The notes: generated by a model not told the origin, from the letters alone. A DNA stretch of 34,283 nucleotides from Candidatus Altimarinota bacterium (GCA_027028725.1 JALVIB010000030.1:1-34283), one strand, 5' to 3'. Numbered from the stretch's first letter, positions 1-34,283 are shown. Numbers and translations are program-made.

Positions 1-408
1 AAGTTCTCAGCAGAAAAAACAGGAACAAAAAAAACAATAAAAAACTTTCCTTTGGCTCCCTCTTTTTTGAAAGAGGGCGGGGGGTGATTTTCCTTTTTCG
101 CGGGATTTTGCTACTTCTTTCTAAAAATCCCCCTCAGTCCCCCTTTGAAGAAAGGGGGAGTGCTCAGCAAGGGAAACAGAAGAAGAAAAAAACAATAAAA
201 CACTTTTCCTTTTGGCTCCCTCTTTTTCTAAAGAGGGCGGGGGGTGATTTTCCTTTTTTCGCGAGATTTTACTGCTTCTTTTTAAAATCCCCCTCAGTCC
301 CCCTTTGAAGAAAGGGGGAAGTTCTCAGCAAGAAAAACAGGAACAAAAAAACAATAAAACAGTTCCTTTTGGCTCCCTCTTTTTCTAAAGAGGGGTGGGG
401 TGATTTTA
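1..408. repeat. Tandem ~160-bp BIME-like units (about 2.5 copies) built from inverted pairs of REP-like hairpins
   Basis: Near-identical units at ~1-159, 160-320 and 321-408. Each carries TCCCTCTTTTT..AAAGAGGG; the two full units also carry AAATCCCCCTCAGTCCCCCTTTGAAGAAAGGGGGA with a TTCGCG(G/A)GATTTT motif between the hairpins. Confidence 0.9.
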
Positions 409-423
409 AAAAAATAAAAACAC

Positions 424-456
424 AAAAAAACCCCCTCACTCGCGTGAGGGGGTTTT
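424..456 (-). terminator. Intrinsic terminator of the S-layer gene
   Basis: AAAACCCCCTCAC-GCGA-GTGAGGGGG-TTTTTTT on the minus strand, ~90 bp after the stop codon. Confidence 0.85.
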
Positions 457-464
457 AAATTATC

Positions 465-492
465 AAGTCCGGACTTCGGAAAGTCCGGACTT
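465..492. repeat. Pair of 12-bp palindromes AAGTCCGGACTT
   Basis: Exact copies at 465-476 and 481-492; others at 8637, 8671, 14702, 14734, 27243, 31228 and 31262. Confidence 0.9.
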
Positions 493-546
493 AAGATAAT
501 TTTTTGAACTTTTGAAGAGTTCTAACTTTTTACAGCAATGACGCCA

Positions 547-3500
547 TTACTGTTCAGAAGCACCAGCCAAAGTGCCGCTAGGAATAGTTAACTCGTATCC
601 ATTTAAGAATGGATAAGCACCAGTATTATCTGACCGATCAGACCAAACAATATCAGCTGGGGCAGCAGCAGTAACAGGAGTATCTAACACTCCGTCACCA
701 TTACCATCAGTCCCCGCACCAGCATTATCTGTAGCATCAACTGTTTCGTAAGCTGCAGCAGCTGTTGCTTCGTTAACAAATGAGAATGAAAGAGAATCAA
801 CCCCATCTGTTGTGTTAAGAGGGTCTTTAGTTCTTAATTCATAATAGTTAGTATTTTCAATTAAGTCACTAAATCCATCAAATACAAGAGCATCGTATGT
901 TCCAGCTCCGGCAGAATCTAATATAGCTACAGGATTACCTGTGTAACCAGAATCTGCAAATTTAACTAAACTCCAATTTGTGTCTGTGAAATCAGCTGAT
1001 GTATCGTATACATTAGTTGAAGAAGATGTCACAGAGAATGTTAATCTGTTAATGTTAGCATCTCCTGCAGCATCAGTAGAAATAGAGAATCTGAAAACAG
1101 CTTTATCACTTCCACCAGCAGAATCAGCAGTAAATACTGGTTGAGTTGATTTTGGAAGAGCGTTTATTGTTATCTTTGTTTTGTAAGCAATAAATGCATC
1201 ACCAGTAGCTGGTGCACCAGCAATACTTGTTTGGCTAACATCAGTTCCAGTAGCACCTGTTAGCGCCTCAATTCCAGTGCTAGTTGTCCCCGGTATAGAA
1301 GGCATTGTCGTATCTAGTTCTAATTTTAACTGTTTAGCAGTTCTAGCTGCATCGTTAATGTTTCTGACCTTAATTTTAACAGTTACGTCTGCACTACCAT
1401 CCTTCGGAACAATAATCTTATTGGCGTTAAGTTCAAAATGAACTTTTCCGTTTGTCATTTGTTCTGTCCCTAGCAACTGACCAGCTTCGTTGTATAACAT
1501 AAAGTCAGCATGACCATCAAAGTCAGTTCCTATTGCATTAGTTAGGTAAAGATCTTTAACTTGAATTTCATCATATTTAGATTCTAAACGCAATTTCCAT
1601 ACCTCAGCAGTTTGATTTTCAACTAGAACAGTTGATGGATAGATACCTTCTTGTGAAACAGTTAGTGTTCCAGAAGTTGTAAATGTGAATTCTGCTCCAC
1701 ATAAGTAGTTAGGTGTATCTAATGATCCGTCACAAGCACCTGTTAGATCGCCTGGACCAGCCGTATCAGTACCACCTAATAGATCACCAGCTTCGTAAAC
1801 TTTAACACCACTACCATTTTCAGCATTATCAGCATCAACTGCTGTAACTGCCATTCGGATAGTAGATCCACCTGGTGCTTCAGTAACGGCTGTCCCTACT
1901 GGGACTTGTGCACCAAATTCACCAGAATTATTAACAGTTCCTTCATTATTTTTACATGTAACTGTGTTTCCTGTAACATCTTCTACCACACATGTTTCTG
2001 CACCAATAGTTAGAGTATCTCCATCAGAAATGTTATTTGCACTAGCAACAGTAAATCCGGATGAAGCCGCACCAACTGGGTATTCTCGTGAAACGCTATT
2101 AATATCCTGTCCAGTATGATCAACATCAACAGTAGATGGATCAACAACGATAGCTGTAGCTCCAGTACCTGCATCTGCTGTAACAATAATAAAGTCACCA
2201 TTCATTTCAATAACATCTCCTGCTTTTACATCAGCAGTAATACCACTAGTACAGTTAACTGGAGAAGTTGAGTTTGTAGCTGACGCATCAGCTGCTGGAC
2301 AAATAGCCCCTCCTACAACATTTGTTGTACTTGTTCCGTCGTCAACTACAGTTGTATTAGCCAAAGCCTCAGTAGCAACTGCTTCAATAGTATCCATCAC
2401 AACAGTAAATTCTTCTTGTCCTGCTGATGGAATTACAACTGCAATGTCGTTAAAGGCTGCAGTTCCTTTAATTGAAGCATCTGACGAATTATCAAGAGTT
2501 TTACTTGATCCGATTTGTTGTCCGTCCACAAACAATGAAGCTGTGAAGTTTGAGTAGTTAGATTCAGCCGCACCTGTTCCCAATCCTTTGATTGTGATTG
2601 AAGTAATGTTTACATCTCCTGAATCATTGTTGTCTAGAACGAATTTCATAAATGTAGCATCTTGAATACCAGCAACAGCTACCTCTGAAGTAAAGCTATC
2701 TGTTCGTGTAATTGTTAGAACTGATTCCTCAACTTCAACTTTTGAAGCCAATGCTGAACCCAAAAGATCATTTTCTACTACTGTATCCCCTGAAGAAATG
2801 TATTCTGGAGAATCAAAGTCTTTGGCATATAATGCAAATTTAACCCATGATCCTGTAGTAGCTTCATCTTTGATGTTCATTACAAGTTTCATTACTGAAG
2901 CACCTGTAATTTCAAATTGAGAAGAATAATCTAGGTAAGGAGCTGCATCAGTTCCTGATAAAGTGTTTTCTGTATCAACTAGATCGTCGTTCAAGTACAA
3001 TCGGAAGTTGTCGAAGTAGTTGTTCAATGTTGTAAGACTGTGTTGGTCTCCTGCAGTATCTCCATCAATGTCGTATGAATCAACTTTAATTTTAACTCCG
3101 TCAACCATAATTGGTTGTGAAACAACAACTCGTGCTGTCATAGCTACAACATCGTTAGATCCCGGAGCGTATTCTTGGTTTCCTAGAGAGTTAGGGTCTC
3201 GAGAAACATTAATGTCTCCTGAATCAATTGTGTATTTAGCCAAAGTAGCGTTAGCGTCTTCAGCGTTGTTTCCTGATGGGTCAACTGTTTTAACACCGAA
3301 TGCTGTACCGATTTCGATACCTACAATGTCTTCAAAGTTATCAACTTTGAATTCGATGTAATCATTAGCTTCTGCTGAAACAACATCAGCTCGCATTGAG
3401 AAGATTCGAGAATCTCCGTCTTCAATAACATATCCTCCTGTAACTCCGTTATCTAATCGGAATGTTACATAGTCTCCGTCAATAATAGTTTCTGCAGAAA

Positions 3501-4830
3501 CTTGTTCTCCTGAAACATATAGAGCGAAGTTTTCTAGGTCGTTAGCTAGTTCAGCTGTACCTGTGTTTTTGAAAGTAATAGCTCTCAACTCAATATCTTT
3601 GTTTGTAGTTGAAGAGTTTAACATTCGGAATTTACCTAATTCTACAAAAGAATCACCAACATTAACTGTTGTATTTGATCCCAAAGTAGTCATAGTAAGT
3701 TGTGAAACTTGGTAATCAGCAACTTCCATTTCTTCACCTTCAATAGGGAAGTTTCCTACAACATTAGCTGCTGTAGATACGATGTCGTCAGCTGAAACAA
3801 CTGCGAATCGGTTGTGGTGTCCGATGTTACATCCTTCAGCACCAGATGCGTAACAAGTACCATCAGCTGCCAAAGTGTATTTGTTAGAAGCAACAACATC
3901 AGCAACCAAAGTTTGTCCCGCAGGAACTACAATTGGTGGGTTGAATCGTAATTCAACGATATCGTCGTTGTTAACAGATCGGTCGTTTCCAACTTTGAAT
4001 CCGTCAATTTCTAACCAAACTTTGTCGAAATCATCTGAATCACCAAGACCCAAACGAGTCAAAGTAATAGCTGAAATTTCAACATCGCTGTCATCAGAAG
4101 CTGTCAAATCAAGAGTTGTGAAAGGAACTGAAGTAGCATTGTAAGGAATGTTTGTTCCTCGTGGTGTATCAGCAGATAGAGAAACTTCTAGAGTTCCTGC
4201 TGCTGGATTAGTCGCTTCAGTAGCTGCCAGTAAACCTTGGTAAACAACAACTGCTGCTTCAGCACGAGTAACAGTATTTGCTGGTGCAAATGTACCGTCA
4301 CCGTAACCTAACATAATTCCGTGAGCTTTAACTGTTTCTACATATGGGTAGAACCAATCAGCTGGGTCAACATCGCTGAAGCTTGGTCCGTTATCAATTT
4401 CTTCTAATTCGAAGGCATTAACAACTTCTTTAGCTATTTCAGCTCGGTTGATTAGGTTGGCTGGTTTAAATGTACCGTCTGGATATCCGTCGATCCATCC
4501 GTAGTTGTACATTGTTTCTACATAATCGTAGAACCAGTCACCTTCTTGTACATCAGGGAAGTGTGCACCTCCTGTTGTGTCAATAGCTACATCAGCTGCA
4601 AGTACAATAATTTTTGATACTTCAGCACGATTTAGCTCTCTGTTTGGAGCAAAAGAACCATCATCATTACCAGTCATCACATTGATAGCTGCTAATTCTG
4701 AGATAGCCTCGTCTGCCCAAGATGGAATCTCTGCATCGTCAGTGTATGCAAAAGCTGTCGTCGTAACGAAAGCTAGTGCCAAAAATGACAATAGAGCGAC
4801 TCCTTTTTTAATTTTTGATAAAAAATTCAT
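547..4830 (-). CDS. S-layer protein with signal peptide and three N-terminal SLH domains
   Basis: Signal peptide ending AFA; three SLH repeats (LNRAE, INRAE, VTRAE with F.DV...WF); acidic, Thr/Ala/Asp-rich beta-type body of 1427 aa. Confidence 0.9.
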   Translation of the reverse strand: MNFLSKIKKGVALLSFLALAFVTTTAFAYTDDAEIPSWADEAISELAAINVMTGNDDGSFAPNRELNRAEVSKIIVLAADVAIDTTGGAHFPDVQEGDWFYDYVETMYNYGWIDGYPDGTFKPANLINRAEIAKEVVNAFELEEIDNGPSFSDVDPADWFYPYVETVKAHGIMLGYGDGTFAPANTVTRAEAAVVVYQGLLAATEATNPAAGTLEVSLSADTPRGTNIPYNATSVPFTTLDLTASDDSDVEISAITLTRLGLGDSDDFDKVWLEIDGFKVGNDRSVNNDDIVELRFNPPIVVPAGQTLVADVVASNKYTLAADGTCYASGAEGCNIGHHNRFAVVSADDIVSTAANVVGNFPIEGEEMEVADYQVSQLTMTTLGSNTTVNVGDSFVELGKFRMLNSSTTNKDIELRAITFKNTGTAELANDLENFALYVSGEQVSAETIIDGDYVTFRLDNGVTGGYVIEDGDSRIFSMRADVVSAEANDYIEFKVDNFEDIVGIEIGTAFGVKTVDPSGNNAEDANATLAKYTIDSGDINVSRDPNSLGNQEYAPGSNDVVAMTARVVVSQPIMVDGVKIKVDSYDIDGDTAGDQHSLTTLNNYFDNFRLYLNDDLVDTENTLSGTDAAPYLDYSSQFEITGASVMKLVMNIKDEATTGSWVKFALYAKDFDSPEYISSGDTVVENDLLGSALASKVEVEESVLTITRTDSFTSEVAVAGIQDATFMKFVLDNNDSGDVNITSITIKGLGTGAAESNYSNFTASLFVDGQQIGSSKTLDNSSDASIKGTAAFNDIAVVIPSAGQEEFTVVMDTIEAVATEALANTTVVDDGTSTTNVVGGAICPAADASATNSTSPVNCTSGITADVKAGDVIEMNGDFIIVTADAGTGATAIVVDPSTVDVDHTGQDINSVSREYPVGAASSGFTVASANNISDGDTLTIGAETCVVEDVTGNTVTCKNNEGTVNNSGEFGAQVPVGTAVTEAPGGSTIRMAVTAVDADNAENGSGVKVYEAGDLLGGTDTAGPGDLTGACDGSLDTPNYLCGAEFTFTTSGTLTVSQEGIYPSTVLVENQTAEVWKLRLESKYDEIQVKDLYLTNAIGTDFDGHADFMLYNEAGQLLGTEQMTNGKVHFELNANKIIVPKDGSADVTVKIKVRNINDAARTAKQLKLELDTTMPSIPGTTSTGIEALTGATGTDVSQTSIAGAPATGDAFIAYKTKITINALPKSTQPVFTADSAGGSDKAVFRFSISTDAAGDANINRLTFSVTSSSTNVYDTSADFTDTNWSLVKFADSGYTGNPVAILDSAGAGTYDALVFDGFSDLIENTNYYELRTKDPLNTTDGVDSLSFSFVNEATAAAAYETVDATDNAGAGTDGNGDGVLDTPVTAAAPADIVWSDRSDNTGAYPFLNGYELTIPSGTLAGASEQ

Positions 4831-5084
4831 CTTAGTTTTTATTTAGTAAATAAAGAAAATATTCCCCAAAAAGGGGGCTTTCTTGGGTTTGATTTACCAA
4901 TACAAAAAGCTCGCGAAAAAACACGAGAAAATTGGTAAATCGATATATAAGGTAGTTGAAAAAACTCAATATTAAGTTTTCTCATGGATATTCCGCAGAA
5001 TCCCGCGAAAAAATCCACTAAAAGGATTATTTAAATCCCTTAAAAAATTTCTAGAAAGACTATCATTTCATCTTTCCGGCCGTC

Positions 5085-5097
5085 TTTTCAAAGATCA
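5085..5097 (-). promoter_or_regulatory. boxA-like antitermination element in the S-layer leader
   Basis: Minus strand TGATCTTTGAAAA resembles rrn boxA and lies ~70 nt after the predicted transcription start. Confidence 0.5.
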
Positions 5098-5169
5098 AGG
5101 TCATTTGGCGATCCATTACTGGAGCGGGATAAGAGGACACACTCGTCCAAGTTATCCAAACCTGCGCGA

Positions 5170-5198
5170 ATTGTACCTACTTGTCTCCAGAAAGTCAA
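5170..5198 (-). promoter_or_regulatory. Sigma70-type promoter for the S-layer gene
   Basis: TTGACT (5198-5193), 17-bp spacer, TACAAT (5175-5170). Confidence 0.75.
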
Positions 5199-5463
5199 AC
5201 TTTCGTGATTTTCTAGACACATTTAATACAATGCAAGTAGTTAAACGAATTTCGCGGGATTTTGTTACAAAAAAACTTAGATTACGAGTTCACAAGATTA
5301 CAATAAATTCCCGCGAAAATTTACCATCTTCGTCATTGCGAGGAGCGAAGTATGAGCGACGCGGCAATCTACTTCCTTATTTTCAAATCCCCCTTAATCC
5401 CCCTTTCTCAAGGGGGAAATTTAAGGAATTATTTAAAAATCCCGCGAAATCTTCGCAAAAAAT

Positions 5464-5538
5464 GTAGGGACGCCCTTTATAGGCGTCCAAAAAAAATGAA
5501 TTCCAAATTATCGGGCGACCACAAGGAATCGCCCCTAC
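5464..5538. repeat. Inverted pair of GTAG-type REP elements (REPIN-like)
   Basis: GTAGGGACGCCCTTTATAGGCGTCC and the inverted GGGCGACCACAAGGAATCGCCCCTAC; related copies at ~5932, 10822 and 27342. Confidence 0.8.
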
Positions 5539-5568
5539 GAAAAATTTCGCGGGATTTTCCAACAGGGG

Positions 5569-5643
5569 TGGTGGAGCCAAGGAGAATCGAACTCCTATCT
5601 CTGCATTGTCAAGATGAGTATTTTACCATTAAACTATGACCCC
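5569..5643 (-). tRNA. Atypical tRNA with Ala-type acceptor (G3:U70, A73) and irregular anticodon arm (GAC or TGA register); possibly a pseudo-tRNA
   Basis: GGGGTCATAGTTTAATGGTAAAATACTCATCTTGACAATGCAGAGATAGGAGTTCGATTCTCCTTGGCTCCACCA: good acceptor, D and T arms and encoded CCA, but an imperfect anticodon stem. Confidence 0.75.
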
Positions 5644-6339
5644 GACTCCACCAGCGCGGAGTATATAAAAAAAGCTCGCCACAGCAAGCTCTTTTTATTG
5701 ACAATGCAGAGTGGGCCATAACTTTGGCACTCATCACTGGGATAATACCCATTCTTGTTTTATTTGTCAAAAAAAATCCCGCGAAAATTTACCATATTCG
5801 TCATTGCGAGGAGCGAGGTATGAGCGACGCGGCAATCTACTTCCTTATTTTCAAATCCCCCTTAATCCCCCTTTCTCAAGAGGAAAAACTAAGGAATTAC
5901 AAAAAAATCCCGCGAAATCTTCGCAAAAAATGTAGGGACGCCCTTTATGGGCGTCCAAAAAAAGTTAGATTACAAGTTCACGAGTTTACGAGTTCACAAG
6001 ATTACAATAAATTCCCGCGAAAATTTACCATCTTCGTCATTGCGAGGAGCGAGGTATGAGCGACGCGGCAATCTACTTCCTTATTTTCAAATCCCCCTTA
6101 ATCCCCCTTTCTCAAGAGGAAAAACTAAGGAATTACAATAAATTCCCGCGAAAATTTACCATCTTCGTCATTGCGAGGAGCGAAGTATGAGCGACGCGGC
6201 AATCTACTTCCTTATTTTCAAATCCCCCTTAATCTCTTTCTCAAGGGGGAAAACTAAGGAATTATTTTGAAAATTTCGCGGGATTTTCAAAAGGACAGGT
6301 CACGACCTGTCCTTTCTTGTTATCTTATAAACTCGTAAA

Positions 6340-8421
6340 CTATTCCCCGTTTCGTTCAGCGATAATTTTTTCTTCAACACTTTTTGGAACTTTCGCGTAA
6401 TCCGCGAATTCCATTGAATAACTGGCTCGTCCTTGAGTCATTGAACGAAGTTCTGTCGCGTATCCAAACATCTCTCCTAGTGGGATTTTGGCTTTAACAA
6501 AGTTGTTTAGACCGCGTGTCCCAGATTCTTGAATAATTCCTCGTTTTGAAGAAATGTTTCCCATAACATCTCCCAAATAATCTTCCGGAGTAATGACTTC
6601 CACATTCATAATTGGTTCAAGAATTGCTGGATCAGCGCGTTTTCCTCCGTCTTTGAAGGCTTGTGCCGCCGCAATCTTAAAGGCTAATTCAGATGAATCC
6701 ACATCGTGGTAGTTACCATCAACTAGTTCAACTTCCACATCAACTACTGGATATCCCGCGAGAATTCCGCGAGAAGTTGCTTCGTTAAATCCTTTTTCAC
6801 AACCTGGAATATACTCGTTTGGAATTGAAGCTCCTTTAATAGAGTTGATGAATTTAAATCCTGATCCCGGTTCTCCCGGACGAATTTTACAAATAACATG
6901 CGCGAATTGTCCACGACCACCTGATTGTTTCTTGTGAATGTATTCTGCATCAACTTCTTTTTGAATAGTTTCGCGGTAAGCAACTTGTGGTTGCCCGATA
7001 TTCGCTTCAACTTTGAATTCTCGTTTCAAACGATCAACTAGAATGTCTAGGTGAAGTTCTCCCATTCCCGCGATAATTGTTTGTAAAGTTTCTTCGTCAG
7101 TCCAGACTTTGAAAGTTGGATCTTCTTCGGCTAATTTTTGTAGAGCCAATCCCATTTTTTCTTGGTCAGCTTTTGTTTTTGGTTCAATTGAAATCGAAAT
7201 AACCGGTTCTGGGAACTCAATACTTTCTAGCAAGAACTCTTTCCCCATATCACACAAAGTGTCCCCTGTTTTGGTCGCTTTCAAACCAACAACCGCTCCA
7301 ATGTGTCCGGCTTGAATTTCTGGAATTTCTTCGCGGTGATTGGCGTGCATTTGTAATAATCGTCCCACTCGTTCTTTTTTCCCAGAATTAGCGTTGTAGA
7401 TATAAGATCCGGATTTCAAAGTCCCAGCATAAACTCGCACGAAACTAAGTCGTCCCACATACGGATCAGTGGCAATTTTGAAAGCCAAAGCCGCCAAAGG
7501 TCCGTCTTTGTCCGGAGGACAAGCCGTTTTCTTTTCTGGATCATTAACATCTTGCGCCTCAGCTGGTGGAATATCTTTTGGTGAAGGTAGTAATTCGCAA
7601 ACTTTGTCTAACATTGGTTGCACTCCTTTGTTTTTCAAAGCCGTTCCCGTCATAACCGGTACAAATTCTCCGGCAATAACTGCTCGTCGCATTCCCGCGA
7701 TAATTTCTTCTTCGCTCAATTCTTCTCCGTTCAAGTATTTTTCCATCAAAACTTCGTCTGACCCAGCTACCGCTTCCAGCATTTTTTCACGCCATTCTGC
7801 TGCTTCATCAGCCATATCTGCCGGAATATCAACAACATTAATATCCTTTCCAAGATCATCGTTGTAAACAGTCGCTTTCATTGCAATCAAATCAACAATT
7901 CCTTTGAAATCCGCTTCATTTCCGATTGGCAACTGAATTGGGAAAGCGTTTTTGGTCAATCTTTCGACAATTGAGTCATAACTTCGCCAAAAACTAGCTC
8001 CAGTTCGGTCTAGTTTGTTGATAAAACACATTCGCGGAACATTATATTTGTCAGCTTGTCGCCAAACTGTTTCTGATTGTGGCTCAACTCCCGCCACACC
8101 ATCAAAAATACAAACCGCTCCATCCAAAACTCGCAAAGATCGTTCCACTTCCACGGTAAAATCCACGTGACCAGGTGTATCGATAATGTTAATTTGGTGT
8201 CCTTTCCAGAAAGCAGTTGTCGCTGCCGAAGTAATGGTAATACCTCGTTCTTGTTCTTGTTCCATCCAGTCCATAGTAGCTTCACCTTCGTGAACTTCTC
8301 CTAATTTGTGAGATTTCCCAGTATAGAACAAAATTCGTTCTGTTACGGTTGTTTTTCCAGCGTCGATATGGGCAATAATTCCAATATTTCGGACTTGCTC
8401 CAGAGGTAAGATTTTAGTCAT
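6340..8421 (-). CDS. fusA: Elongation factor G
   Basis: [52 protein letters not shown]; 693 aa. Confidence 0.99.
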
Positions 8422-10966: not shown

Positions 10967-11767
10967 CTACACCGAAAAAACATCACAAATTTTCAATTTC
11001 CTCTGCAAAATCTGCTCGGCGCGTTTTTTGGTGAAATTGAGATCGTCGTCCGTGGCAATTTGAAAACTTTTTTTCGCCACCGCCTTGCGGGGCACAGCGG
11101 GATTTTTTTCTACCTCACCCCCGCCCTCTCCTGCTAGAAGAGGGAGTAAAGGAGAATCCTTTAAGTCCGGATTTTGGTCGGAAATCCCCCCAACCCACTT
11201 TATCAAGGGGGAGTTATCGGTAAGTAAATCTGTTAAAAAATAAACTTTCAACTGCGTGCCGGCGAGTTTTTGTAAAATTTGGCGCGTTCTTTTTTCCGCG
11301 AAAATTCCTTCGAGAAAAATCAGCGAATCCACGCGCCAAGTTTTGGCTCGGCGGATGTGTTTCCGTGCTAAACGGCGAAATTCTACGGAGTCGGCTAATC
11401 CTTCGTTCGCCATTTCTCGTAAAATCTGTGTTTCCAAAATGGAAAATTTCGCGGATTTTTCCGCACGCGGATTTTTTTGTCTGTAAGCGAAATTTTGTTT
11501 TGCAAGTTTATTGCAAAAACTCCGCGCATCCTTATTTTTTCTATCAAAAACAATTCCAACTCGTCCGAACTTAGTTTTTTCTTCAACAATTTTTTTAACT
11601 AACAGAAACCAGAAATCTTTTTCTGAAATAGCGTCTTTTTTATCAAAATCCCGCGATTTATTCTCCGAAGCTTTAGCGCAGGAGGAAATTTTTATCCAAA
11701 TTTTTTCCGCCGGATAATTTTTCGCCAAGGCGATTATTCCGAAGTCCGTTCCAACGAATTTTTTCAT
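10967..11767 (-). CDS. Degenerate glutamate racemase (MurI)-like protein lacking the catalytic Cys motifs, with in-frame repeat insertions
   Basis: FVGTDFG resembles IGVFDSG; GRVGIV; MANEGLADS...VDSLIFLEGIF resembles VEEG..D.LILGCTHYP; FQIATDD resembles FYTTGD. Visual similarity only. Confidence 0.55.
   Translation of the reverse strand: MKKFVGTDFGIIALAKNYPAEKIWIKISSCAKASENKSRDFDKKDAISEKDFWFLLVKKIVEEKTKFGRVGIVFDRKNKDARSFCNKLAKQNFAYRQKNPRAEKSAKFSILETQILREMANEGLADSVEFRRLARKHIRRAKTWRVDSLIFLEGIFAEKRTRQILQKLAGTQLKVYFLTDLLTDNSPLIKWVGGISDQNPDLKDSPLLPLLAGEGGGEVEKNPAVPRKAVAKKSFQIATDDDLNFTKKRAEQILQRKLKICDVFSV
11078..11098. mobile_element. 21-bp small dispersed element inserted in the core motif
   Basis: TTTCGC[CACCGCCTTGCGGGGCACAGC]GGGATTT, giving NPA[VPRKAVA]K. 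Confidence 0.85.
11656..11685. mobile_element. 30-bp small element inserted in the core motif
   Basis: AAAATCCCGCG[ATTTATTCTCCGAAGCTTTAGCGCAGGAGG]AAATTTT, giving KIS[SCAKASENKS]RDF. Confidence 0.75.
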
Positions 11768-11835
11768 TTCCCCGCGAAATTAGCAAAAAATTTGTCAAAA
11801 AGCCAATCTTTCCTTTACAATTACAAAAAAACAAA

Positions 11836-12369
11836 ATGAATATAGATTTAGCCGATACAAAATACCAAAAACCAGTTTCTAAAACCACGAAAAATTCGCG
11901 GGATTTTTTGAAAACTTTTCTAATTCTCGCTTTTTTGGGAATTTTGGTCTGGTTTGGAATTCTTTTTTATCAAAAAACCACTTTAGAAAAGGAAAATGCA
12001 CGCTACCAAACTTCAATTGAAACGACAACAGAACGAGTCAAAAAGCTACTTAATTCAGATAATCCCGCGAAAAAAATCGCCGTTGCCAAGACTTTAAACA
12101 AATTAGAAAAAAGACGAATTTTGTGGTCCGAAGTGATGGCGAAAATTATTAAATTAGAAATTCCCGGAATTACTTTTCGTGATTTTTCTGTCGGCGACAA
12201 AGGGCAAATTTCAGCAACTGTTTCCGCGCGAAGTTTCAATTCTGTTCAGCAGTTCGTCAAAAAATTAAATTCCGATGAAAATGTGTCGCAAGTCGTTATC
12301 AATTCGATTCGTTTGGATGAAGCGACTGCGGGCTTGCTGGTGGATTTAAATTTTAACTTTAAATACTAA
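11836..12369 (+). CDS. Type IV pilus assembly protein, PilN-like
   Basis: Single TM, coiled coil, WSEVM..I, ferredoxin-like C-terminus; lies upstream of PilO-like and PilC genes. Confidence 0.7.
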   Translation: MNIDLADTKYQKPVSKTTKNSRDFLKTFLILAFLGILVWFGILFYQKTTLEKENARYQTSIETTTERVKKLLNSDNPAKKIAVAKTLNKLEKRRILWSEVMAKIIKLEIPGITFRDFSVGDKGQISATVSARSFNSVQQFVKKLNSDENVSQVVINSIRLDEATAGLLVDLNFNFKY

Positions 12370-12890
12370 TGAAAACTTGGAAAATTTTATTCATTGTGAT
12401 TTTGATTAGCGCGATTGGGTTTGGAGTTTTTCCTTTGCGGAAAAAAATCGCGGGATTACGAACAGAAAACCAAAAACTCGCCAAAATTCGCGAGCAAAAA
12501 ATCGCGGAATACGAAGAACTTACTAGCAAGATGCAAAATCCTGATCAAGGAATTGCTGATCCCGAATTAAAAATCCCGCGAAAATTAGCGCAAACGGAAT
12601 TATTGATAGATTTACAAAAAATCGCTTCTCAAACTGGAATTGAATTGCCAGATTCGTGGTCATTTTCCGTCACCAAAGATGCTGATTTGGATATTTCTCA
12701 GTTGGGCGTGTCTTTCTCGATCAAAGGAAGTCGCGGGAATATTTATAAATTTTTACAACTTGTCGAGCAAAACGAAAGATTTATGGATGTCGAAAGATTG
12801 GCTTTGCGGACTTTTTCTGATAACGGAGTACCAACGATAGAAATGCCAATTAATTTAACTGCTTATGCACAAGAAATTGTCGAAAAATAA
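12369..12890 (+). CDS. Type IV pilus assembly protein, PilO-like
   Basis: N-terminal TM, coiled coil, IP......LL..L..IA..TG, KG....I..FL..VE...RFM.V pattern. Confidence 0.75.
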   Translation: MKTWKILFIVILISAIGFGVFPLRKKIAGLRTENQKLAKIREQKIAEYEELTSKMQNPDQGIADPELKIPRKLAQTELLIDLQKIASQTGIELPDSWSFSVTKDADLDISQLGVSFSIKGSRGNIYKFLQLVEQNERFMDVERLALRTFSDNGVPTIEMPINLTAYAQEIVEK

Positions 12891-12902
12891 TCCTGTGGAC
12901 TA

Positions 12903-20969: not shown

Positions 20970-21752
20970 ATGAAAAAAAATAATGCTTTCACTCTTATTG
21001 AATTACTAGTAGTGATTGTCATTATCGGGATTCTGGCAACGATTTCTGTTGTTGCTTATGGCGGATATCAAGAAAAAGCCAGAATTGCAAAAGCCCAAGC
21101 TTTTGCTAAAGATTCCAATATACAAATGCTGGCTGCTCATACGGAAAAGGAATCTTCCATGTTTGGGCATTGGAATTTTGATGGGAGTGATCCAAATGTC
21201 GCCATTGATTATTCTGGAGAAGGACATAATTTAGTTAAAAACACCACAAATATAACATTAGCAGAAAGAGTCTTAGATACTCCAACAGGGATTGGACTTG
21301 CTACTCGAGCTATTTCTAATTATTATGTTTACCACGATCCAAGTGGTACTACTTTTAATGTAGCAGATGGTGGCGGAGTAACATTAAATGGTTGGTTTAA
21401 GGTAGAAGATTTTTCCTCCGCATCTTCCATTCTATTATTTGCAAACAACAAATATCATCTACGCATATATAATAACGGAGTTATTAAGTTTGGAGTAAAT
21501 ACAGAAAATGGCTTAAAGGATATAACTACCCCGTCTAATTCTTTTAAACATAATAAATGGTACTTTGTTTTGGCTACTTATGATGAAGATAGAGGATTAA
21601 TGAAGATATACCTTGATGGAGAATTAGTAAAAAAAGACACACACTCAGGAAAAATTATAGAATTCCCAGGAACAAACCTTGCCTACACTTACGGAAATAC
21701 GTTGTTATTCGATGACTTTTACAAATGGACAATCCCTTATCGTTCCAAATAA
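20970..21752 (+). CDS. Type IV pilin with C-terminal LamG/concanavalin-like domain
   Basis: A|FTLIELLVVIVIIGILA, KAR.AK; then HWNFD..A.DYSG..H, TL.GWFK, W.FV.ATYD...KIYLDG. Confidence 0.9.
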   Translation: MKKNNAFTLIELLVVIVIIGILATISVVAYGGYQEKARIAKAQAFAKDSNIQMLAAHTEKESSMFGHWNFDGSDPNVAIDYSGEGHNLVKNTTNITLAERVLDTPTGIGLATRAISNYYVYHDPSGTTFNVADGGGVTLNGWFKVEDFSSASSILLFANNKYHLRIYNNGVIKFGVNTENGLKDITTPSNSFKHNKWYFVLATYDEDRGLMKIYLDGELVKKDTHSGKIIEFPGTNLAYTYGNTLLFDDFYKWTIPYRSK

Positions 21753-24017: not shown

Positions 24018-24794
24018 ATGATTAAAAAAGGTAATTCTATAGTTCTTTTTCACGAAAAACAAGTTCGTCGTTATTGGGATGAGGAAAAAGAACTTTGGTA
24101 TTTTTCGGTTATTGATGTAATTGCGATTTTGACAGAAAGCACAAATCCAAGAAAATATTGGAGTGTCCTAAAAACAAGGCTTAAAAAAGAAGGAAGTGAA
24201 GTGGCTACAAATTGTAGCCGTTTGAAATTGTTAGCAAGTGACGGAAAAATGAGAATGACCGATGTTGCTGATACGCAAACGCTTTTAAGGCTTATTCAAT
24301 CTATTCCGTCTCCTAAAGCTGAACCTTTAAAAATTTGGTTAGCACAAGTTGGGTATGAAAGAATAGAAGAAACCGAAGATCCAGAACTTGCTTTTGAAAG
24401 GGCAATGCGAACTTATTTACAAAAAGGATATTCCAAAGAATGGATAAATCAGAGATTAAAAACAATCGAAGTTCGTAAAGAACTTACAGATGAATGGAAA
24501 GAGCGAGGTGTAAAAGAAGGATTAGAATTTGCAATTCTTACAAATGAAATTACAAAAGCATGGTCAGGAAAGTCTGTAAAAGCATATAAAAAATTTAAAG
24601 GACTTAAAAAAGAGAATTTACGAGACAATATGACAAATCTTGAATTGATTCTAAACATGTTAGCCGAAGCTACAACAACAGAAATTTCCAAAAAGAAACA
24701 ACCCAAAAATTTTCAGCAAAGCAAAAAGGAAACTAAAATAATTCTACAAACCAAGGAAACTCTGATGGAAATCACCCCATCAAAATTTCCTTAA
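24018..24794 (+). CDS. BRO-N domain protein (phage antirepressor-like), C-terminus possibly truncated
   Basis: VRRYWD....WYFSVIDVI..LT, LKL.A.DGK.R.TD, IQSIPSPKAEP.K.WLA..G.ER, LRDNMT..EL. Confidence 0.88.
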   Translation: MIKKGNSIVLFHEKQVRRYWDEEKELWYFSVIDVIAILTESTNPRKYWSVLKTRLKKEGSEVATNCSRLKLLASDGKMRMTDVADTQTLLRLIQSIPSPKAEPLKIWLAQVGYERIEETEDPELAFERAMRTYLQKGYSKEWINQRLKTIEVRKELTDEWKERGVKEGLEFAILTNEITKAWSGKSVKAYKKFKGLKKENLRDNMTNLELILNMLAEATTTEISKKKQPKNFQQSKKETKIILQTKETLMEITPSKFP

Positions 24795-30009: not shown

Positions 30010-30282
30010 CTAACGAAAAAGATCCGAATGCGAGCCGGTTCTTTCAAAAATTACAGATTTTTCTTCTAATTTGTAAATCAAAATCCAGTCCGGAGCAAGA
30101 TGTAATTCTCGTCGGTTCTTAAATTTTCCTAATAGTTTATGATCTTTAAATTTTTCATCCAAAACTTTGCCTTTTGCTAACATCTCAACAACTTTTTTAA
30201 ATTCTGTGAAATCTTTGCCAGACTTTTTTTGTTTACGAATGTCTCTTTTAAATTGGGTACGATAAACAACTTTTCGCATCAA
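30010..30282 (-). CDS. yafQ: YafQ-family mRNA interferase toxin
   Basis: QFKRD, DHKL.G....RE.H..PDW.LIY, RTGSHSDLF. Confidence 0.92.
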   Translation of the reverse strand: MMRKVVYRTQFKRDIRKQKKSGKDFTEFKKVVEMLAKGKVLDEKFKDHKLLGKFKNRRELHLAPDWILIYKLEEKSVIFERTGSHSDLFR

Positions 30283-30539
30283 ATTCCTAATTCTTCAAAT
30301 AATTTCGCGGGATTTTCAACATAATTTAAATCTTTTCCTTGATCTGTTTCCCTCAAAACTCGTTCAGTTTCAGCATTAGGAATATTTCTAGTGGGAACAA
30401 CCGTGGCGATTTGAATCCGCCCTGAAGCAAAATCGTTCAAAAGAATTCGCGCTACTGCCGAGACACTCATATCATATTTTTTCGCGACTTTTTGAGCGCG
30501 AGCTTTGGTTGATTTTGGAATTGAAATAGTTGTATTCAT
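30279..30539 (-). CDS. RelB/DinJ-like antitoxin
   Basis: K.RA..V.....MS.S...R..L, PNAET...L.E, LF.EL; overlaps the yafQ start (ATGA). Confidence 0.8.
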   Translation of the reverse strand: MNTTISIPKSTKARAQKVAKKYDMSVSAVARILLNDFASGRIQIATVVPTRNIPNAETERVLRETDQGKDLNYVENPAKLFEELGI

Positions 30540-30614
30540 GGAATTTGTTTAATGAAATCTAATGAAATTATACATTTTTCATTATAAACCGGCAAGGAAA
30601 AATCCCGCGAAATT

Positions 30615-30887
30615 TTACAGCCCTAATTCTGAATGCGTCCCAATATTTTCTAAAACAGCCTTACTGTTATCTTTATCAATCCGCACAATAATTCGCAAAT
30701 CTCCACCGATTTCCAGTTCCTCATACCCAATAAACCTTCCCCTTAATTTTTTTCGATAACAATTTGCTTGCCGTCCTAATTTAGAAAAATCTATCAAAGC
30801 TTTATTTATTTTATCTTTTAAATTCTTTCTAGATTCTACTAATTTTCGCGCGTTTTTTTGGAATTTTTTAGAAAAAATTAACTCCAT
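30615..30887 (-). CDS. RelE/YafQ-superfamily toxin
   Basis: FSKKFQK...K, KL.G...G..E..I.GDLRI, L.NIGTH.EL. Confidence 0.8.
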   Translation of the reverse strand: MELIFSKKFQKNARKLVESRKNLKDKINKALIDFSKLGRQANCYRKKLRGRFIGYEELEIGGDLRIIVRIDKDNSKAVLENIGTHSELGL

Positions 30888-31138
30888 AATGTTTTGTTTA
30901 ACAAATCTTCGGTGATTTCTTCTTGGTTAGGATTTACAGAAACATAATTGTTATTTTCGCCTTTCAGAGACTTTTCGACATTATCCCAATAAATTTTATC
31001 CGCCTTTGCCAAGAAATCCTGTTTATCAAAATACATTTCCAAGGCTTCGTTTATAACACGGCTTTTATTTTTAAATTTAGACAAAATATTCCACAAAGGT
31101 TTTTGCAAAGAAACGCTTGTTTTGACGGTTGTAGTCAT
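30878..31138 (-). CDS. Putative ribbon-helix-helix antitoxin
   Basis: KTSVSL...L...L....NKSRVINEAL..Y; upstream of and overlapping the toxin. Confidence 0.7.
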   Translation of the reverse strand: MTTTVKTSVSLQKPLWNILSKFKNKSRVINEALEMYFDKQDFLAKADKIYWDNVEKSLKGENNNYVSVNPNQEEITEDLLNKTLWS

Positions 31139-31195: not shown

Positions 31196-31305
31196 AAAAA
31201 TCCCGCGAAATTTTTGAAGAAAAACCTAAGTCCGGACTTAGACAACTTTTTATCTTGTGCCAAGTCCGGACTTGTTTTTTTAAATGCAAAATTTCGCGGG
31301 ATTTT
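31196..31305. repeat. ~110-bp module: inward-facing core motifs enclosing two AAGTCCGGACTT palindromes
   Basis: Inverted homologue of 8604-8713; its right part also matches 27235-27279. Confidence 0.8.
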
Positions 31306-33917
31306 TAGTTTTGATTTTGAGAACTACTAGATCCATTATCTGTATCTGCACCCGTACTACCGCTGCCAGTATTGGAATCAGGGGTGATACCATAATCTGT
31401 TTGTAACATGTTTTTGAAATTGCTCTCAGTCATACCTATTTTTTGTATTACGGTTTTTTGTTTATCTGTCAATTGAGGACTATTTATTATTATTTGAGCC
31501 TGTTCCTTAGTTAATTTACCATTACTATTACCACCAAATTCACTCATATCAAGTGGAGCCCCATTCCTTCTATCAGCGAGATAAACTGCTTGAACCTTGT
31601 TATCATTGTCTTTTTCTTTAAAGACTATTTTATTGCTGTCTACAGTTGTATCCATGCTGTCTCTATTTTTTACACCTGTTAAATCTACTCCATACATTGA
31701 TTTAGCGTATTTTGAATATGATTTAATCAATTCTTCTTCGGATAAATTACTATTCTCCTTCTTGGCAAATGTAGTTAACAACGCCATATCTGTTTTTGAA
31801 AAATCGGCATTCTTTGCTGCTATTTTTAAATTCTCATTATCCTTAATATCAAGATCTTTATTTTTAATTCCAGAATACTCTCCAACAGTAGAATCATTAT
31901 CCTTAATAGTAACACTATTTGGATCAATTTTCGTCTCATTTTCAGGTTTATCATCAGTGCCACTGCCAGAACTCTTATCAATTCCTTTAAAGAAGTCCTT
32001 ACCATTATTGATTTCTCCCTTATGATAAGCCCCTGATGTAAGATATTTAAGCCCTTCTGTTCCTGTGGCATATTTATCAAATCCCTCTGCAACCCCATGT
32101 TCTTCTATGGCTTTCTTTAACCCAGGTGCCCAAGCGGCAGTTGATCTCTCTAACATGTCAATAACCTGACTTTTATGATGTTCTGCATCCGCCTTACTAT
32201 CAAATTTGGTCAAAATATCGTCTTTAAATTTTTCTAATTTATCATCATGTCCAAATTTAGTATCATGTAACAATTTTACTATTTCTGGAGTTTCAAATCC
32301 CAAAGCTTTTCTCAAATTTTCGCGACCTTTATTTCTTACTTCTGCTTGATGTGTCCTAAATAAATCTGGTGCTGCCAAAATATTAGACATAGAAAATTTA
32401 TTATCACTACCTCCTGTTCCAACTGAAAAGATTTGGCGATCAATTGTAGCGGCACGAGCGGCAACTTCTCCTAATGCCTGTGCTCCTGTAAAGATTTTAT
32501 CCGTAATATCATGAGCTAAGTTGCCATCAATTGCCCATTTGGCAGCCATCCAAAATAGGACAATTGTCGCCATTTGCCATAAAAATCCGTATTCCTCAAT
32601 TCCTAAATTTGATAAAGCTGGACCAAAAAGGAAGGCGTCTCCCTGCTGAACAACTTCAAACTCAATCATTCCTGACATCATTACAAATCCTACCGCAAAA
32701 GCAGCCGCGATTTTTAGCGGCATAATTAAATTCTTAACTAGTTGGTCAACTGCTTCTCCGGCTTTCCCTTCACCAAATCCCATAATTGAAGCGGCAATTA
32801 AAAGTGGCGAAAACACCATCGCAATCCACAGCACAATAACCCGCGACAAAAGCGCAATAAATATCGCTACCAAAACAACAACATAAGCAATTCCTAAAAT
32901 TGCCGAGAAAAGCGTATTTAAAAGAACTCCGTTTAGACTATTAATTTTAGCCGCTAAGGCGGGAAGGCGTTCCAAATGCATAAAATTTGTCCCAAAAGCC
33001 ATAAATAAATTTTGTCCCGGTTCATCATCAGGACTCAAAAGTGATTTAAAAGTGTTCTTTTTTAGAACAAACAGACAATCGTCATCTAATTTCTCTTCTT
33101 TAGTATTAGGATCATCATATCCATTTTTTTCCCAGCCGGCACAAAACAAATCATTTACCTGACTACGAAAATTACGACAAGCGTAATAGCGAGTCTTTCC
33201 ATCGACTGATTTAGTAAAAGTTAATACTCCACTAGCATTTCCTATTTGATCTTTATGTTCTTTAGAACAACTTTTCCCGGCTTTAACGCTCTCCTTGTCT
33301 TCTGTATCAAACTCTTTTTTATTTTTTAATTTTTCATAAGACTTTTCTGGCAACATTACCCATGTTTTTGCACTAATCATGGCGTCCTGCTGTTCCGGAT
33401 TGTCAACATCCAGACGAGAGTCGGCAATTCCCAAAATTGCCACCGTTCCTACATTTACCGCATCAATTACTACTCGAAAAGCCAATAAAGAAAAATTTAT
33501 CGCCACCAAAGCAATAATGACTTTTGGTAATTTTTCTTTAATCGTCCAATTTCCACCATTTTCGCCTGAAAAACTCGCGAAAAGATTAGAAAAAGCCAGC
33601 CCAACTAGCACAATTACGAACAGAATATTAGTTAAATTTCGCACCCACACCCACATCGGAGTTAGTGACTGCATAGCTTCTGGCCCCGTTATCATATTTG
33701 TCCCCATCAACTGCCCAAAAAACTTCATCATCAAAAGCGACAAAAAGGTTAAAACACTAATTAAAACTCCTAGAAGTTCCGCTAATGATTCCAAAACTCC
33801 TTTATCACTTGAAGTAGCTGCAAAAGCCATATCCGGAGCGACTATCTGAAAGGCTAAAGCCAGTAAAAACAAAGCCCAAAGCCCGCGAAACGAGAACAAT
33901 TTTTTAAGTAGTTGCAT
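31305..33917 (-). CDS. Large polytopic membrane protein, VirB6/TrbL-like (CPR T4SS-like), with hydrophilic C-terminal tail
   Basis: W..VRNL.N..F..VL, LPK.IIALV..NFS......ID..N, R.I.LW....FSPL; multiple TMs. Family assignment is by pattern only. Confidence 0.65.
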   Translation of the reverse strand: MQLLKKLFSFRGLWALFLLALAFQIVAPDMAFAATSSDKGVLESLAELLGVLISVLTFLSLLMMKFFGQLMGTNMITGPEAMQSLTPMWVWVRNLTNILFVIVLVGLAFSNLFASFSGENGGNWTIKEKLPKVIIALVAINFSLLAFRVVIDAVNVGTVAILGIADSRLDVDNPEQQDAMISAKTWVMLPEKSYEKLKNKKEFDTEDKESVKAGKSCSKEHKDQIGNASGVLTFTKSVDGKTRYYACRNFRSQVNDLFCAGWEKNGYDDPNTKEEKLDDDCLFVLKKNTFKSLLSPDDEPGQNLFMAFGTNFMHLERLPALAAKINSLNGVLLNTLFSAILGIAYVVVLVAIFIALLSRVIVLWIAMVFSPLLIAASIMGFGEGKAGEAVDQLVKNLIMPLKIAAAFAVGFVMMSGMIEFEVVQQGDAFLFGPALSNLGIEEYGFLWQMATIVLFWMAAKWAIDGNLAHDITDKIFTGAQALGEVAARAATIDRQIFSVGTGGSDNKFSMSNILAAPDLFRTHQAEVRNKGRENLRKALGFETPEIVKLLHDTKFGHDDKLEKFKDDILTKFDSKADAEHHKSQVIDMLERSTAAWAPGLKKAIEEHGVAEGFDKYATGTEGLKYLTSGAYHKGEINNGKDFFKGIDKSSGSGTDDKPENETKIDPNSVTIKDNDSTVGEYSGIKNKDLDIKDNENLKIAAKNADFSKTDMALLTTFAKKENSNLSEEELIKSYSKYAKSMYGVDLTGVKNRDSMDTTVDSNKIVFKEKDNDNKVQAVYLADRRNGAPLDMSEFGGNSNGKLTKEQAQIIINSPQLTDKQKTVIQKIGMTESNFKNMLQTDYGITPDSNTGSGSTGADTDNGSSSSQNQN

Positions 33918-33940
33918 AATTTTTTTAAATTAATCCCTAC

Positions 33941-33969
33941 ATTATACCGAAAATCCCGCGAAATTTCAA
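33941..33969 (-). promoter_or_regulatory. Putative promoter with the core motif in its spacer
   Basis: TTGAAA, spacer TTTCGCGGGATTTTCGG (17 bp), TATAAT. Confidence 0.65.
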
Positions 33970-34118
33970 GCAAAAATCCCCTTAACTACTCCGGCAATTT
34001 TCCTCTCTCTGCAAGATATTTGCGGGAACGTAGTTTAAAGAAATTTTCTACCGCCCTTTCGTGCTCTCCTGCAAATGAATTTTTTCGCGGGATTTTAATA
34101 TAAACAAAAAGCAAGGAG

Positions 34119-34153
34119 TCTCCCTCTCCTCCTAGGAGAGGGTGGGGGTGAGG
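34119..34153. repeat. REP-like hairpin of the CCTCACCCC..CCCTCTCC..GGAGAGGG family
   Basis: CTCCCTCTCCTCCTAGGAGAGGGTGGGGGTGAGG; relatives lie inside gmk (10185-10230) and the MurI-like gene (11113-11146). Confidence 0.7.
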
Positions 34154-34283
34154 TGAGAAAATCCCGCGAAATTTTGAAAAATTTCATAAATTCATAAAAA
34201 TATGCTAAATTCTCCGCGCTTGTCCTCCGAAGGATAAAATGTCACCAAATATATTATGAAAATTACTGCTTCTGAACTTCGCG

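Follow-up and report, generated by a model that had tools for sequence, protein, structure and literature searches.

The stretch of DNA analysed here, referred to as the window throughout, comprises 34,283 nt and is contig C30 of a draft genome assigned to a Candidatus Altimarinota bacterium (G000; 1,041,106 nt in 94 contigs, 38.2% G+C). It carries a field of 75 exact copies of the 8-mer TCCCGCGA, located on both strands between positions 98 and 34169 (first copy 98-105, last copy 34162-34169) and mostly set within the context AAAA-core-AA-TTTT. An earlier note on this DNA, based on the window alone, had estimated about 70-80 copies at roughly 1 per 450 bp and a chance expectation below one in a window this AT-rich. 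Both estimates were accurate: the 75 copies amount to one per 457 nt, and dinucleotide-preserving shuffles of the window contained 0.74 copies on average (sd 0.80, maximum 5), with none of 100 shuffles reaching 75. The absence of a strong strand skew was also borne out, but the hand count of about 46 to 36 copies was not, as the actual split is 42 on the plus strand and 33 on the minus strand.

The copies on the plus strand start at positions 5001, 5309, 5440, 5777, 5908, 6013, 6144, 6754, 7066, 7693, 8488, 8609, 8898, 10066, 10498, 10862, 11649, 12063, 12574, 14131, 14477, 14672, 15803, 15948, 16844, 17346, 18392, 18720, 19227, 20087, 20958, 21755, 22323, 25522, 26855, 27133, 29465, 29884, 30603, 31201, 33954 and 34162, and those on the minus strand at positions 98, 5252, 5547, 6276, 8703, 9239, 9758, 10394, 10739, 11896, 12448, 12731, 13687, 15097, 15439, 16371, 16765, 16949, 17596, 19649, 20372, 20721, 22808, 23702, 23722, 24810, 25959, 27269, 28881, 29598, 30305, 31294 and 34085. 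Their distribution is uneven, with ten copies in the gene-free region 4831-6339 and none in 106-5000 and in 31302-33953. The former of the two empty stretches, a gap of 4,903 nt and the second largest motif-free gap of the genome, surrounds a motif-free gene on the minus strand (547-4830) encoding a protein of 1,427 amino acids with S-layer homology (SLH) domains (PF00395, E 1e-38). The latter contains a gene, also on the minus strand (31305-33917), for a protein of 870 amino acids without a Pfam family. These are the two largest genes of the window, and they share the lack of the motif with other large genes of surface type or of unknown function in the genome. The gene-free region itself is a mosaic of the ten motif copies, GC-rich hairpin modules resembling repetitive extragenic palindromic (REP) sequences, a tRNA gene and four copies of a longer unit. 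The tRNA gene was assigned by ARAGORN to tRNA-Ser (anticodon tga; 5569-5643, minus strand). Its length of 75 nt is short for a putative tRNA-Ser, as bacterial tRNA-Ser normally possesses a long variable arm. The adjacent gene for elongation factor G (EF-G; 6340-8421, minus strand) harbors copies at 6754, 7066 and 7693, which on the coding strand read as ILAG, IIAG and IIAG, respectively.

The central part of the window is occupied by a type IV pilus assembly cluster (10967-16939), which was identified by profile matches. It consists of a possible PilM (10967-11767, minus strand), a PilN-like (11836-12369) and a PilO-like protein (12369-12890), PilC/T2SSF (12903-14087), three genes of the prepilin type (14156-14785, 14782-15258 and 15255-15914) and an open reading frame (ORF) for 323 amino acids without Pfam match (15968-16939). 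A further prepilin-type protein with a laminin-G/concanavalin-like domain is encoded downstream (20970-21752, plus strand; PF07963 and PF13385). Together, these genes represent candidate machinery for reading the motif, as judged from their predicted products. Within the pilin gene 15255-15914, a motif copy on the minus strand (15439-15446) encodes the residues FAG just ahead of the prepilin cleavage site (..RNFAG/FSLIELL, the slash marking the site). In other prepilin genes of the genome (on contigs C17, C82, C91 and C94), the motif on the opposite strand similarly encodes the end of the leader (..NFAG/FTLIEL), so that in several prepilin genes the glycine and phenylalanine of the cleavage site are written by the motif.

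Across the whole genome, 2,472 copies of TCCCGCGA were counted (1,247 on the plus and 1,225 on the minus strand), which corresponds to 2.37 per kb or about one per 420 nt. Copies occur on 92 of the 94 contigs, the two contigs without a copy (C69 and C70) being 2.7 kb each, and on the 25 largest contigs the density ranges from 1.5 to 2.9 per kb. Thus, the observation made on the window is confirmed, holds genome-wide and is stronger than it looked from the window alone. The three most frequent 8-mers of the genome, CCGCGAAA, CCCGCGAA and TCCCGCGA, overlap one another, and the 14-mer AAAATCCCGCGAAA alone occurs 1,080 times. The consensus word of the motif as it is found across the genus is the short and asymmetric AAAATCCCGCGAAATTTT. 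An alignment of 2,469 genomic copies demonstrated that the full signal is asymmetric as well and spans about 18 nt, AAAA-TCCCGCGA-AA-TTTT, which substantiates the A/T flanks that had been proposed from the window. At positions -4 to -1, A occurs in 71-84% of the copies, at +8 and +9 in 89% and 83%, and T accounts for 60-68% at +10 to +13; beyond these flanks the composition returns to background. The 18-nt signal accounts for about 4.3% of the DNA. Its most constrained part is CGCGA, which is nearly invariant with no more than 8 copies of any single-substitution variant, while the two preceding C residues tolerate a change to T (108 and 148 copies). The asymmetry is pronounced, as ATCCCGCGAAAT was found in 848 copies and the palindromic ATTTCGCGAAAT in 12, and the other palindromic form is outside the 20 commonest variants. 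The tetranucleotide CGCG is three times as frequent as GCGC (8,101 vs. 2,751), an excess that is due to the motif and its degenerate relatives.

Gene calls for this genome were made by our own crude ORF model, which yielded 878 genes on 84% of the DNA. When synonymous codons were shuffled within each gene, the 1,548 copies in genes were reduced to 147.7 +/- 8.7, and when the order of the codons was shuffled, to 29.4 +/- 5.0 (20 shuffles each). Markov null models of order 4-6 were set aside, as they are contaminated by the motif itself. In called genes (1,549 copies, 63%), all six frames are used, with 266, 128 and 320 copies in the three sense frames (714) and 208, 425 and 202 in the antisense frames (835). 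The usual peptides are KSRE, IPR, NPAK, SRDF, FAG and FRGI, in agreement with those named in the earlier note, and EIFAG in an S41 peptidase, ISREK in Gmk and KPREI in FtsK, which it had likewise listed, were all located. DNA outside called genes makes up 16% of the genome and holds the remaining 923 copies (37%). In these spacers the motif reaches its highest density, 5.4-6.7 per kb regardless of the orientation of the flanking genes, and the orientation of the copies is independent of the neighboring gene (405 vs. 396 and 400 vs. 391). Of 791 spacer copies, 263 (a third) begin within 20 nt after a stop codon. The 14-mer TAAAATCCCGCGAA occurs 231 times, and the stop codon TAA may provide part of the A flank of the motif at these positions.

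The mean distance between neighboring copies is 408 nt and the median 278.5 nt. Close pairs are scarcer than expected from an exponential distribution, as only 11.8% instead of 21.7% are within 100 nt and 2.4% instead of 9.3% within 40 nt. On each of the 25 largest contigs, the fraction of forward copies lies between 0.38 and 0.62. Since the draft is split into 94 contigs, GC skew was taken as the proxy for the replichore. Over 61 windows of 10 kb the forward fraction is not significantly correlated with GC skew (r = -0.20, p = 0.13), while GC skew correlates well with the strand of the genes (r = 0.77).

Thirteen stretches of at least 2.5 kb in the genome are free of the motif. The largest is a restriction-modification/defense island of 6.2 kb with 33.7% G+C directly upstream of nusA (C44:12725-18957), which encodes a DUF5655 protein, an N6/N4 methyltransferase, a DpnII-type endonuclease and an AAA_15/AAA_21 ATPase. 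Other such stretches coincide with the 23S rRNA gene (C60), part of rpoC (C73), a DUF285/Ig-like surface protein (C31) and four large proteins without a Pfam family (C37, C5, C93 and C35), or consist of the two short contigs C69 and C70 and of the two large genes of the window mentioned above (547-4830 and 31305-33917, both on the minus strand). A further stretch (C45:18722-22950, 31.8% G+C) contains a second T2SSE/T2SSF gene pair and two ORFs of unknown function. This pair is free of the motif, in contrast to the pilus cluster of the window. Copies are therefore missing at highly constrained sequence and at DNA that is probably young or fast-evolving. Conservation of a gene as such does not keep the motif out, as is illustrated by EF-G with its three copies.

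Two other regions of the window are of a different nature. On the minus strand, 30010-31138 comprises two tandem pairs, each consisting of an ORF for a YafQ/ParE-type toxin of 90 amino acids and a partner of 86 amino acids without Pfam match, which are probably duplicated type II toxin-antitoxin modules. A protein with a BRO-N domain is encoded at 24018-24794 within a stretch of lower G+C content (34-36%, 20-26 kb). This stretch may be phage-related DNA; the spacing of the motif is normal there.

The longer unit in the gene-free region of the window (4831-6339) is present in four copies of 131-194 nt, which are 70-100% identical and each begin with the motif. It is built of GC-rich hairpin modules, one of which begins with GTAG, the start that is the rule for classical REP sequences. 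The 194-nt version gives 77 high-scoring segment pairs (HSPs) across the genome, and one connected family of modules comprises 608 motif copies. The modules were not found in 155 kb of the two congeneric genomes G001 and G002, in which matches to the unit are limited to its motif parts, nor in 928 kb of outgroup genomes. A gene of the Y1 transposase type (PF01797) is located at C87:7241-7480 and occurs in G000 alone among the three congeners. As a candidate REP-associated tyrosine transposase (RAYT) linked to the motif, PF01797 was rejected; it is present in G000 and in the more distant G003 and G016, not in G001 and G002, and so does not track the motif. As the modules are limited to G000 in the DNA sampled and the motif is genus-wide, the modules are read as a younger, species-specific REP-like layer, which would live beside the motif or make use of it. 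They may inflate the count in spacers. However, 1,393 of the 1,537 coding copies have flanks of their own, and these cannot be explained by the modules.

The motif was found in three congeneric genomes among 43 genomes of the order, which belong to 25 genera of one family. The 12-mer AATCCCGCGAAA occurs 1,391 times in G000, 1,012 times in G002 and 281 times in G001, all members of one genus, whereas 38 further genomes of the family and class contain it once at most; its reversed control gave 0 matches. Similarly, the three congeners contain 1,396, 1,156 and 1,098 copies of CCGCGAAAT, compared to at most 31 in each of 40 genomes of 24 other genera. The slight excess of this word in G005 (31) and G050 (19), which represent a sister genus, was dismissed as an effect of composition rather than a motif, because the contexts in G005 lack a common flank. 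Samples of 80 kb from G003, G016 and G020 displayed an enrichment of the best 8-mer over base composition of about 16-fold at most, compared to 274-fold in G000. In a 60-kb sample of G005 the best 8-mers reached 28.6-fold, but all of these were words rich in A/T runs with no discrete longer motif behind them. In 30 samples of at least 14 kb from other genomes, no abundant word was detected, the top 9-mer occurring at no more than 0.5 per kb compared to 2.0 in G000 and G002; six further samples (2.5-10.6 kb) were too short for an assessment. When 185,579 species genomes were scanned with an 18-mer, at least 63 stretches were obtained. Among those listed, 47 stem from two congeneric Candidatus Peribacteria genomes, and the remaining 16 belong to unrelated organisms, none of which had more than two matches. 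Peribacteria are a class of Candidatus Peregrinibacteriota, a lineage of the candidate phyla radiation (CPR), which fits the CPR-type host that had been suggested from the window. Of 80 metagenome loci holding the 18-mer, 55 are dense in the motif, and 51 of these 55 align to G000 at 68-93% identity; further relatives therefore carry it. A 16-mer scan of viral contigs gave one match each on 33 contigs and no motif-dense phage.

Between G000 and its two congeners, nucleotide identity is about 76-77%. G001 uses a looser dialect, in which TTCCGCGAAA and TCCCGCGAAA are about equally frequent (75 and 72 copies in a 75-kb sample) around the common CGCGAAA. This shared word has a density of 4.2 per kb in G001, 3.7 in G000 and 3.1-3.2 in G002. 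In the 75-kb sample of G001, which is unbiased, 113 G000 copies could be aligned, and 44 of them (39%) are exactly conserved, compared to 94 of 504 random 8-mers taken from the same alignments (19%). In G002, 247 of 429 copies are conserved compared to 292 of 1,760 random 8-mers, with flanks that are 73% identical; these loci had been chosen for holding the 18-mer, which introduces some bias into the figure. Motif copies are thus conserved 2-3.5 times better than random 8-mers. Where they are not conserved, their partners are mostly one transition off (TTCCGCGA and TCTCGCGA), and only 4-5% of the copies align with gaps to the sister species. This indicates that copies are gained and lost through point substitution while their positions stay fixed, and that many of them are older than the split of the species. 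At the protein level, residues covered by the motif are 36.1% identical to the orthologues from outgroup genera (n = 1,208), compared to 55.8% elsewhere (n = 59,608; 207 protein-genome pairs).

With regard to the machinery that could act on such a motif, ComEC (558 amino acids, with DUF4131 and Competence domains) and DprA are encoded in all three congeners (G000-G002). About 15 prepilin-like genes were identified in G000 by a sequence pattern. A pilin query produced 22 matches in this genome, whereas the two congeners gave 6-8 and other genomes of the order 1-17. Candidate DNA methyltransferases were searched with four Pfam families in the three congeners, of which G001 and G002 are 92-93% complete, and in two outgroups. 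The C5 methyltransferase family PF00145 and the family PF02086 were not found in G000, G001 or G002. A full PF01555 gene is present in G000 only and lies inside the motif-free DpnII island. The sole PF02384 gene encodes a Type ISP enzyme, which occurs in 5 of the 43 genomes of the order and not in G001 and G002. A weak PF01555 match common to all five of these genomes was discarded, as it is of the RMKL/UPF0020 type and probably an RNA methyltransferase. Among the four families searched, no DNA methyltransferase thus tracks the motif. The Type ISP gene (C24:4786-7929; Type_ISP_C, N6_Mtase and Eco57I domains) itself contains 8 motif copies, and this load suggests a long residence in the lineage despite its patchy distribution.

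The abundance, symmetry, distribution, lineage restriction, dialect and positional conservation of the motif, its avoidance of the island and the presence of the machinery were computed directly. As the best-supported explanation, we consider it somewhat probable that the motif is an analogue of a DNA uptake sequence, kept by biased uptake and recombination. According to this model, the competence apparatus of this Peribacteria genus (type IV pilus, ComEC and DprA) would include a DNA receptor on the cell surface that prefers double-stranded DNA with the 18-nt signal AAAA-TCCCGCGA-AA-TTTT, so that fragments from conspecific cells would be imported and recombined more often. Mutations that improve near-matches would then be over-transmitted, a form of molecular drive, and over time copies would come to fill every position tolerated by the protein or the intergenic DNA. 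Biased uptake, a pilin or another surface protein as the receptor and the subsequent recombination are what we infer from the pattern. Another CPR lineage provides a precedent, as comEC-dependent natural transformation has been demonstrated in Saccharibacteria, and the same paper reports that com genes are conserved across the CPR. The earlier note had left the choice between an uptake signal and a site maintained by methylation. All pattern-level predictions of the former that could be computed here hold, while the latter found no support, as PF00145 and PF02086 were not found in the three motif-bearing genomes and full PF01555 and PF02384 genes occur among them in G000 only.

Several observations weigh against a role in uptake. 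Relatives that lack the motif possess ComEC, DprA and type IV pili just as well (ComEC and DprA, e.g., in G003 and G016); therefore, the machinery does not set the motif-bearing genomes apart. A search with PF12836 did not detect ComEA, as its hits are DnaE. The pilin 15255-15914 of the window has full-length orthologues in 40 of the 43 genomes of the order, so that its presence does not track the motif, and a basic pilin (pI 9.0) on contig C51 has no close orthologue in G001 or G002. With these two pilins compared across the order, no gene that tracks the motif was found. Flanks in common with distant copies occur in 559 of 904 non-coding copies, compared to 144 of 1,537 coding copies; as these shared flanks belong to the modules, part of the intergenic excess may have spread with the modules and not by uptake bias. 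Inverted, terminator-like pairs are rare, with 5 convergent pairs at an offset of 12 nt among 2,380 neighbor pairs, each of which would fold as a perfect hairpin. A weak polarity exists, as 46.1% of the copies are forward at positive and 53.9% at negative GC skew (pooled 5-kb windows, Fisher p = 0.003). This small orientation bias fits the frame preference within genes (835 antisense vs. 714 sense copies) combined with the strand bias of the genes. Finally, motifs of the type of the cyanobacterial highly iterated palindrome 1 (HIP1) exhibit similar statistics without a proven link to uptake.

The last point leads to a different explanation, according to which the motif is kept inside the cell by sequence-specific repair, nicking or methylation-linked biased gene conversion and has no role in import. 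Like HIP1, the motif is dense in coding and non-coding DNA, specific to a lineage and conserved at orthologous sites, and its core contains the palindrome CGCG with its three-fold excess over GCGC. However, the strong asymmetry (848 vs. 12 copies) speaks against this explanation, as does the result of the methyltransferase search, in which two families were not found in the three congeners, the only full PF01555 gene lies in the motif-free island of G000 alone, and the only PF02384 gene is the Type ISP enzyme with its occurrence in 5 of 43 genomes. Both results lower the probability of this explanation, and we regard it as unlikely, although, with four families searched and G001 and G002 being 92-93% complete, it retains some probability. 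Slightly less probable still is that the copies form an array on the resident chromosome to which a DNA-binding protein specific to the genus attaches, the candidates being a nucleoid organizer or a mark of 'self' against a nuclease or defense system. A footprint of about 18 nt with A-tract and T-tract flanks would suit a protein site, the spacing is more even than random, and the defense island is free of the motif. On the other hand, no known chromosomal site system has one site per 420 nt inside genes, selection on each site would have to outweigh changes at the protein level, no candidate protein was identified, and the three species keep the signal yet differ in their restriction-modification content.

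That the copies are footprints or parts of small mobile elements, such as REP sequences, bacterial interspersed mosaic elements (BIMEs) or elements resembling miniature inverted-repeat transposable elements (MITEs), spread by transposition, is improbable to a much greater degree. This explanation could draw on the shared flanks of 559 of the 904 non-coding copies, the GC-rich hairpin modules of which these flanks consist, including the one beginning with GTAG, the 77 HSPs of the 194-nt unit and the Y1 transposase-type gene. However, 1,393 of the 1,537 coding copies have unique flanks, only 4-5% of the copies are gapped against a sister species and the core is not a hairpin. The gap fractions in the comparison with outgroup proteins likewise argue against coding copies being insertions. 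In addition, the modules are missing from the sampled DNA of both congeners (155 kb) and of the outgroups (928 kb) while the motif is genus-wide, and PF01797 was not found in G001 or G002. A polar signal for recombination or chromosome segregation, comparable to Chi or to the FtsK orienting polar sequences (KOPS), would be in line with the 8-nt G+C-rich core and with the weak link between orientation and GC skew. Chi and KOPS sites are mostly on one strand per replichore, whereas the totals on both strands are nearly equal here (1,247 vs. 1,225), the forward fraction per contig does not leave the range of 0.38-0.62 and the correlation with GC skew over 61 windows is not significant. The polarity of the motif is far below that of Chi or KOPS, and its density is several times above that of known Chi sites, so that this explanation is hardly credible. 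Even less so is a by-product of codon or amino-acid usage or an artefact of assembly or binning. The 148 copies that persist after the synonymous shuffle indicate that the proteome is enriched in peptides which the motif can encode; nevertheless, the observed number is 10 to 50 times that of the codon-aware null models and the density is highest outside genes. The motif is also present in three separately deposited genomes and on many metagenome contigs, at orthologous positions, which argues against an artefact. A Chi- or KOPS-like signal, codon usage and artefact are thus excluded in practice. The earlier note had regarded confinement to one contig, an origin in amino-acid or codon usage and strong replichore polarization as speaking against its proposal; what was found instead are copies on 92 of 94 contigs, 1,548 copies in genes compared to 148 and 29, and 46% vs. 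54% forward copies.

Returning to the uptake sequence analogue, its implications would reach beyond this genome. Our confidence and our doubt are evenly balanced as to whether this is the first DNA uptake sequence system outside the Proteobacteria, in which an ultra-small Peribacteria genus would label its own DNA with an asymmetric signal of about 18 nt at intervals of about 420 nt and preferentially import conspecific DNA via a type IV pilus/ComEC route with no secretin, no ComP and no detectable ComEA, implying a new kind of sequence-specific receptor, and in which a single origin of the signal at the root of the genus would already be followed by a split into dialects. In the literature outside subscription journals and supplements, no paper linking uptake sequences with Patescibacteria or Peribacteria was found; one review on methods for the study of horizontal gene transfer mentions both 'uptake sequence' and 'candidate phyla radiation'. 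The motif 8-mer and its complement were encountered there only in unrelated papers, and the text of the Peribacteria genome paper contains none of the terms 'motif', 'competence', 'uptake' and 'methyl'. Documented cases of sequence-biased DNA uptake are confined to two proteobacterial families, and the evolutionary meaning of this bias, be it sex, repair or selfish drive, is still debated. If our interpretation is true, an independent origin in the CPR with an unrelated signal would make the phenomenon convergent and provide a third natural experiment on this debate. As the CPR is largely uncultured and genetic tools exist only for Saccharibacteria, the motif may also be of practical value: its presence on donor DNA may be what makes transformation of this lineage work, and it could serve as bait for the DNA receptor, as a sequence tag to assign metagenome contigs to the genus and as a marker of the residence time of genes in these genomes.

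Comparison with known systems places the motif closest in behavior, not in sequence, to the uptake sequences. It resembles REP/BIME elements with RAYT in that its intergenic copies in G000 alternate with short GC-rich hairpin modules, the order of which varies, and that a Y1 transposase-type gene is present. It differs from them, since 63% of the copies are inside genes and have unique flanks, the motif is not a hairpin, and it is older and wider in occurrence than the modules. HIP1 (GCGATCGC) is dense, restricted to a lineage, found in coding and non-coding DNA and linked to methyltransferases that act on its inner hexamer. The motif is comparable in density, in lineage restriction and in its presence in both kinds of DNA; however, HIP1 is a perfect palindrome whereas this motif is asymmetric, and no methyltransferase within the four families searched tracks it. 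The uptake signal sequences (USS) of the Pasteurellaceae have cores flanked by A/T-rich tracts, and the G+C-rich core here is likewise placed between such tracts. USS also share the frame preferences, the enrichment of encodable peptides and the preference for poorly conserved residues. A 2025 preprint has proposed ComN as a candidate for their receptor. About two thirds of the copies are in genes in both cases, 63% here compared to 65% in H. influenzae; published shares of USS and of the DNA uptake sequences (DUS) of the Neisseriaceae in ORFs are 65%, 49% and 34.5%. In contrast to USS, sequence and phylum are unrelated and many intergenic copies lie inside species-specific hairpin modules.

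From DUS the motif differs in sequence, too. A CTG core is reported to be required in all eight DUS dialects and occurs on neither strand of AAAATCCCGCGAAATTTT, so that the mismatch to the Neisseria DUS noted earlier stands. By its sequence, the motif falls outside both the DUS and the USS families. In addition, the host is an uncultured CPR bacterium and not a proteobacterium, the role in uptake is deduced here from sequence, and inverted pairs, common among DUS and USS, are very few. DUS are read by the minor pilin ComP, while no ComP orthologue or receptor was identified here with two pilins compared across the order. In other respects the resemblance is close. Both consist of a short non-palindromic word that is repeated thousands of times on either strand, in genes as well as in spacers. 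The density of 2.37 per kb is within the published range, which extends from about one DUS per 1,150 nt in Neisseria to an upper value of about 2.5 per kb in Kingella oralis (5,918 DUS in 2.4 Mb). Both have formed lineage-specific dialects around an invariant core. DUS and USS are reported to occupy highly conserved but permissive regions and poorly conserved residues and to be absent from recently acquired genes, and the copies described here are likewise highly conserved, yet placed in permissive regions and absent from recently acquired DNA.

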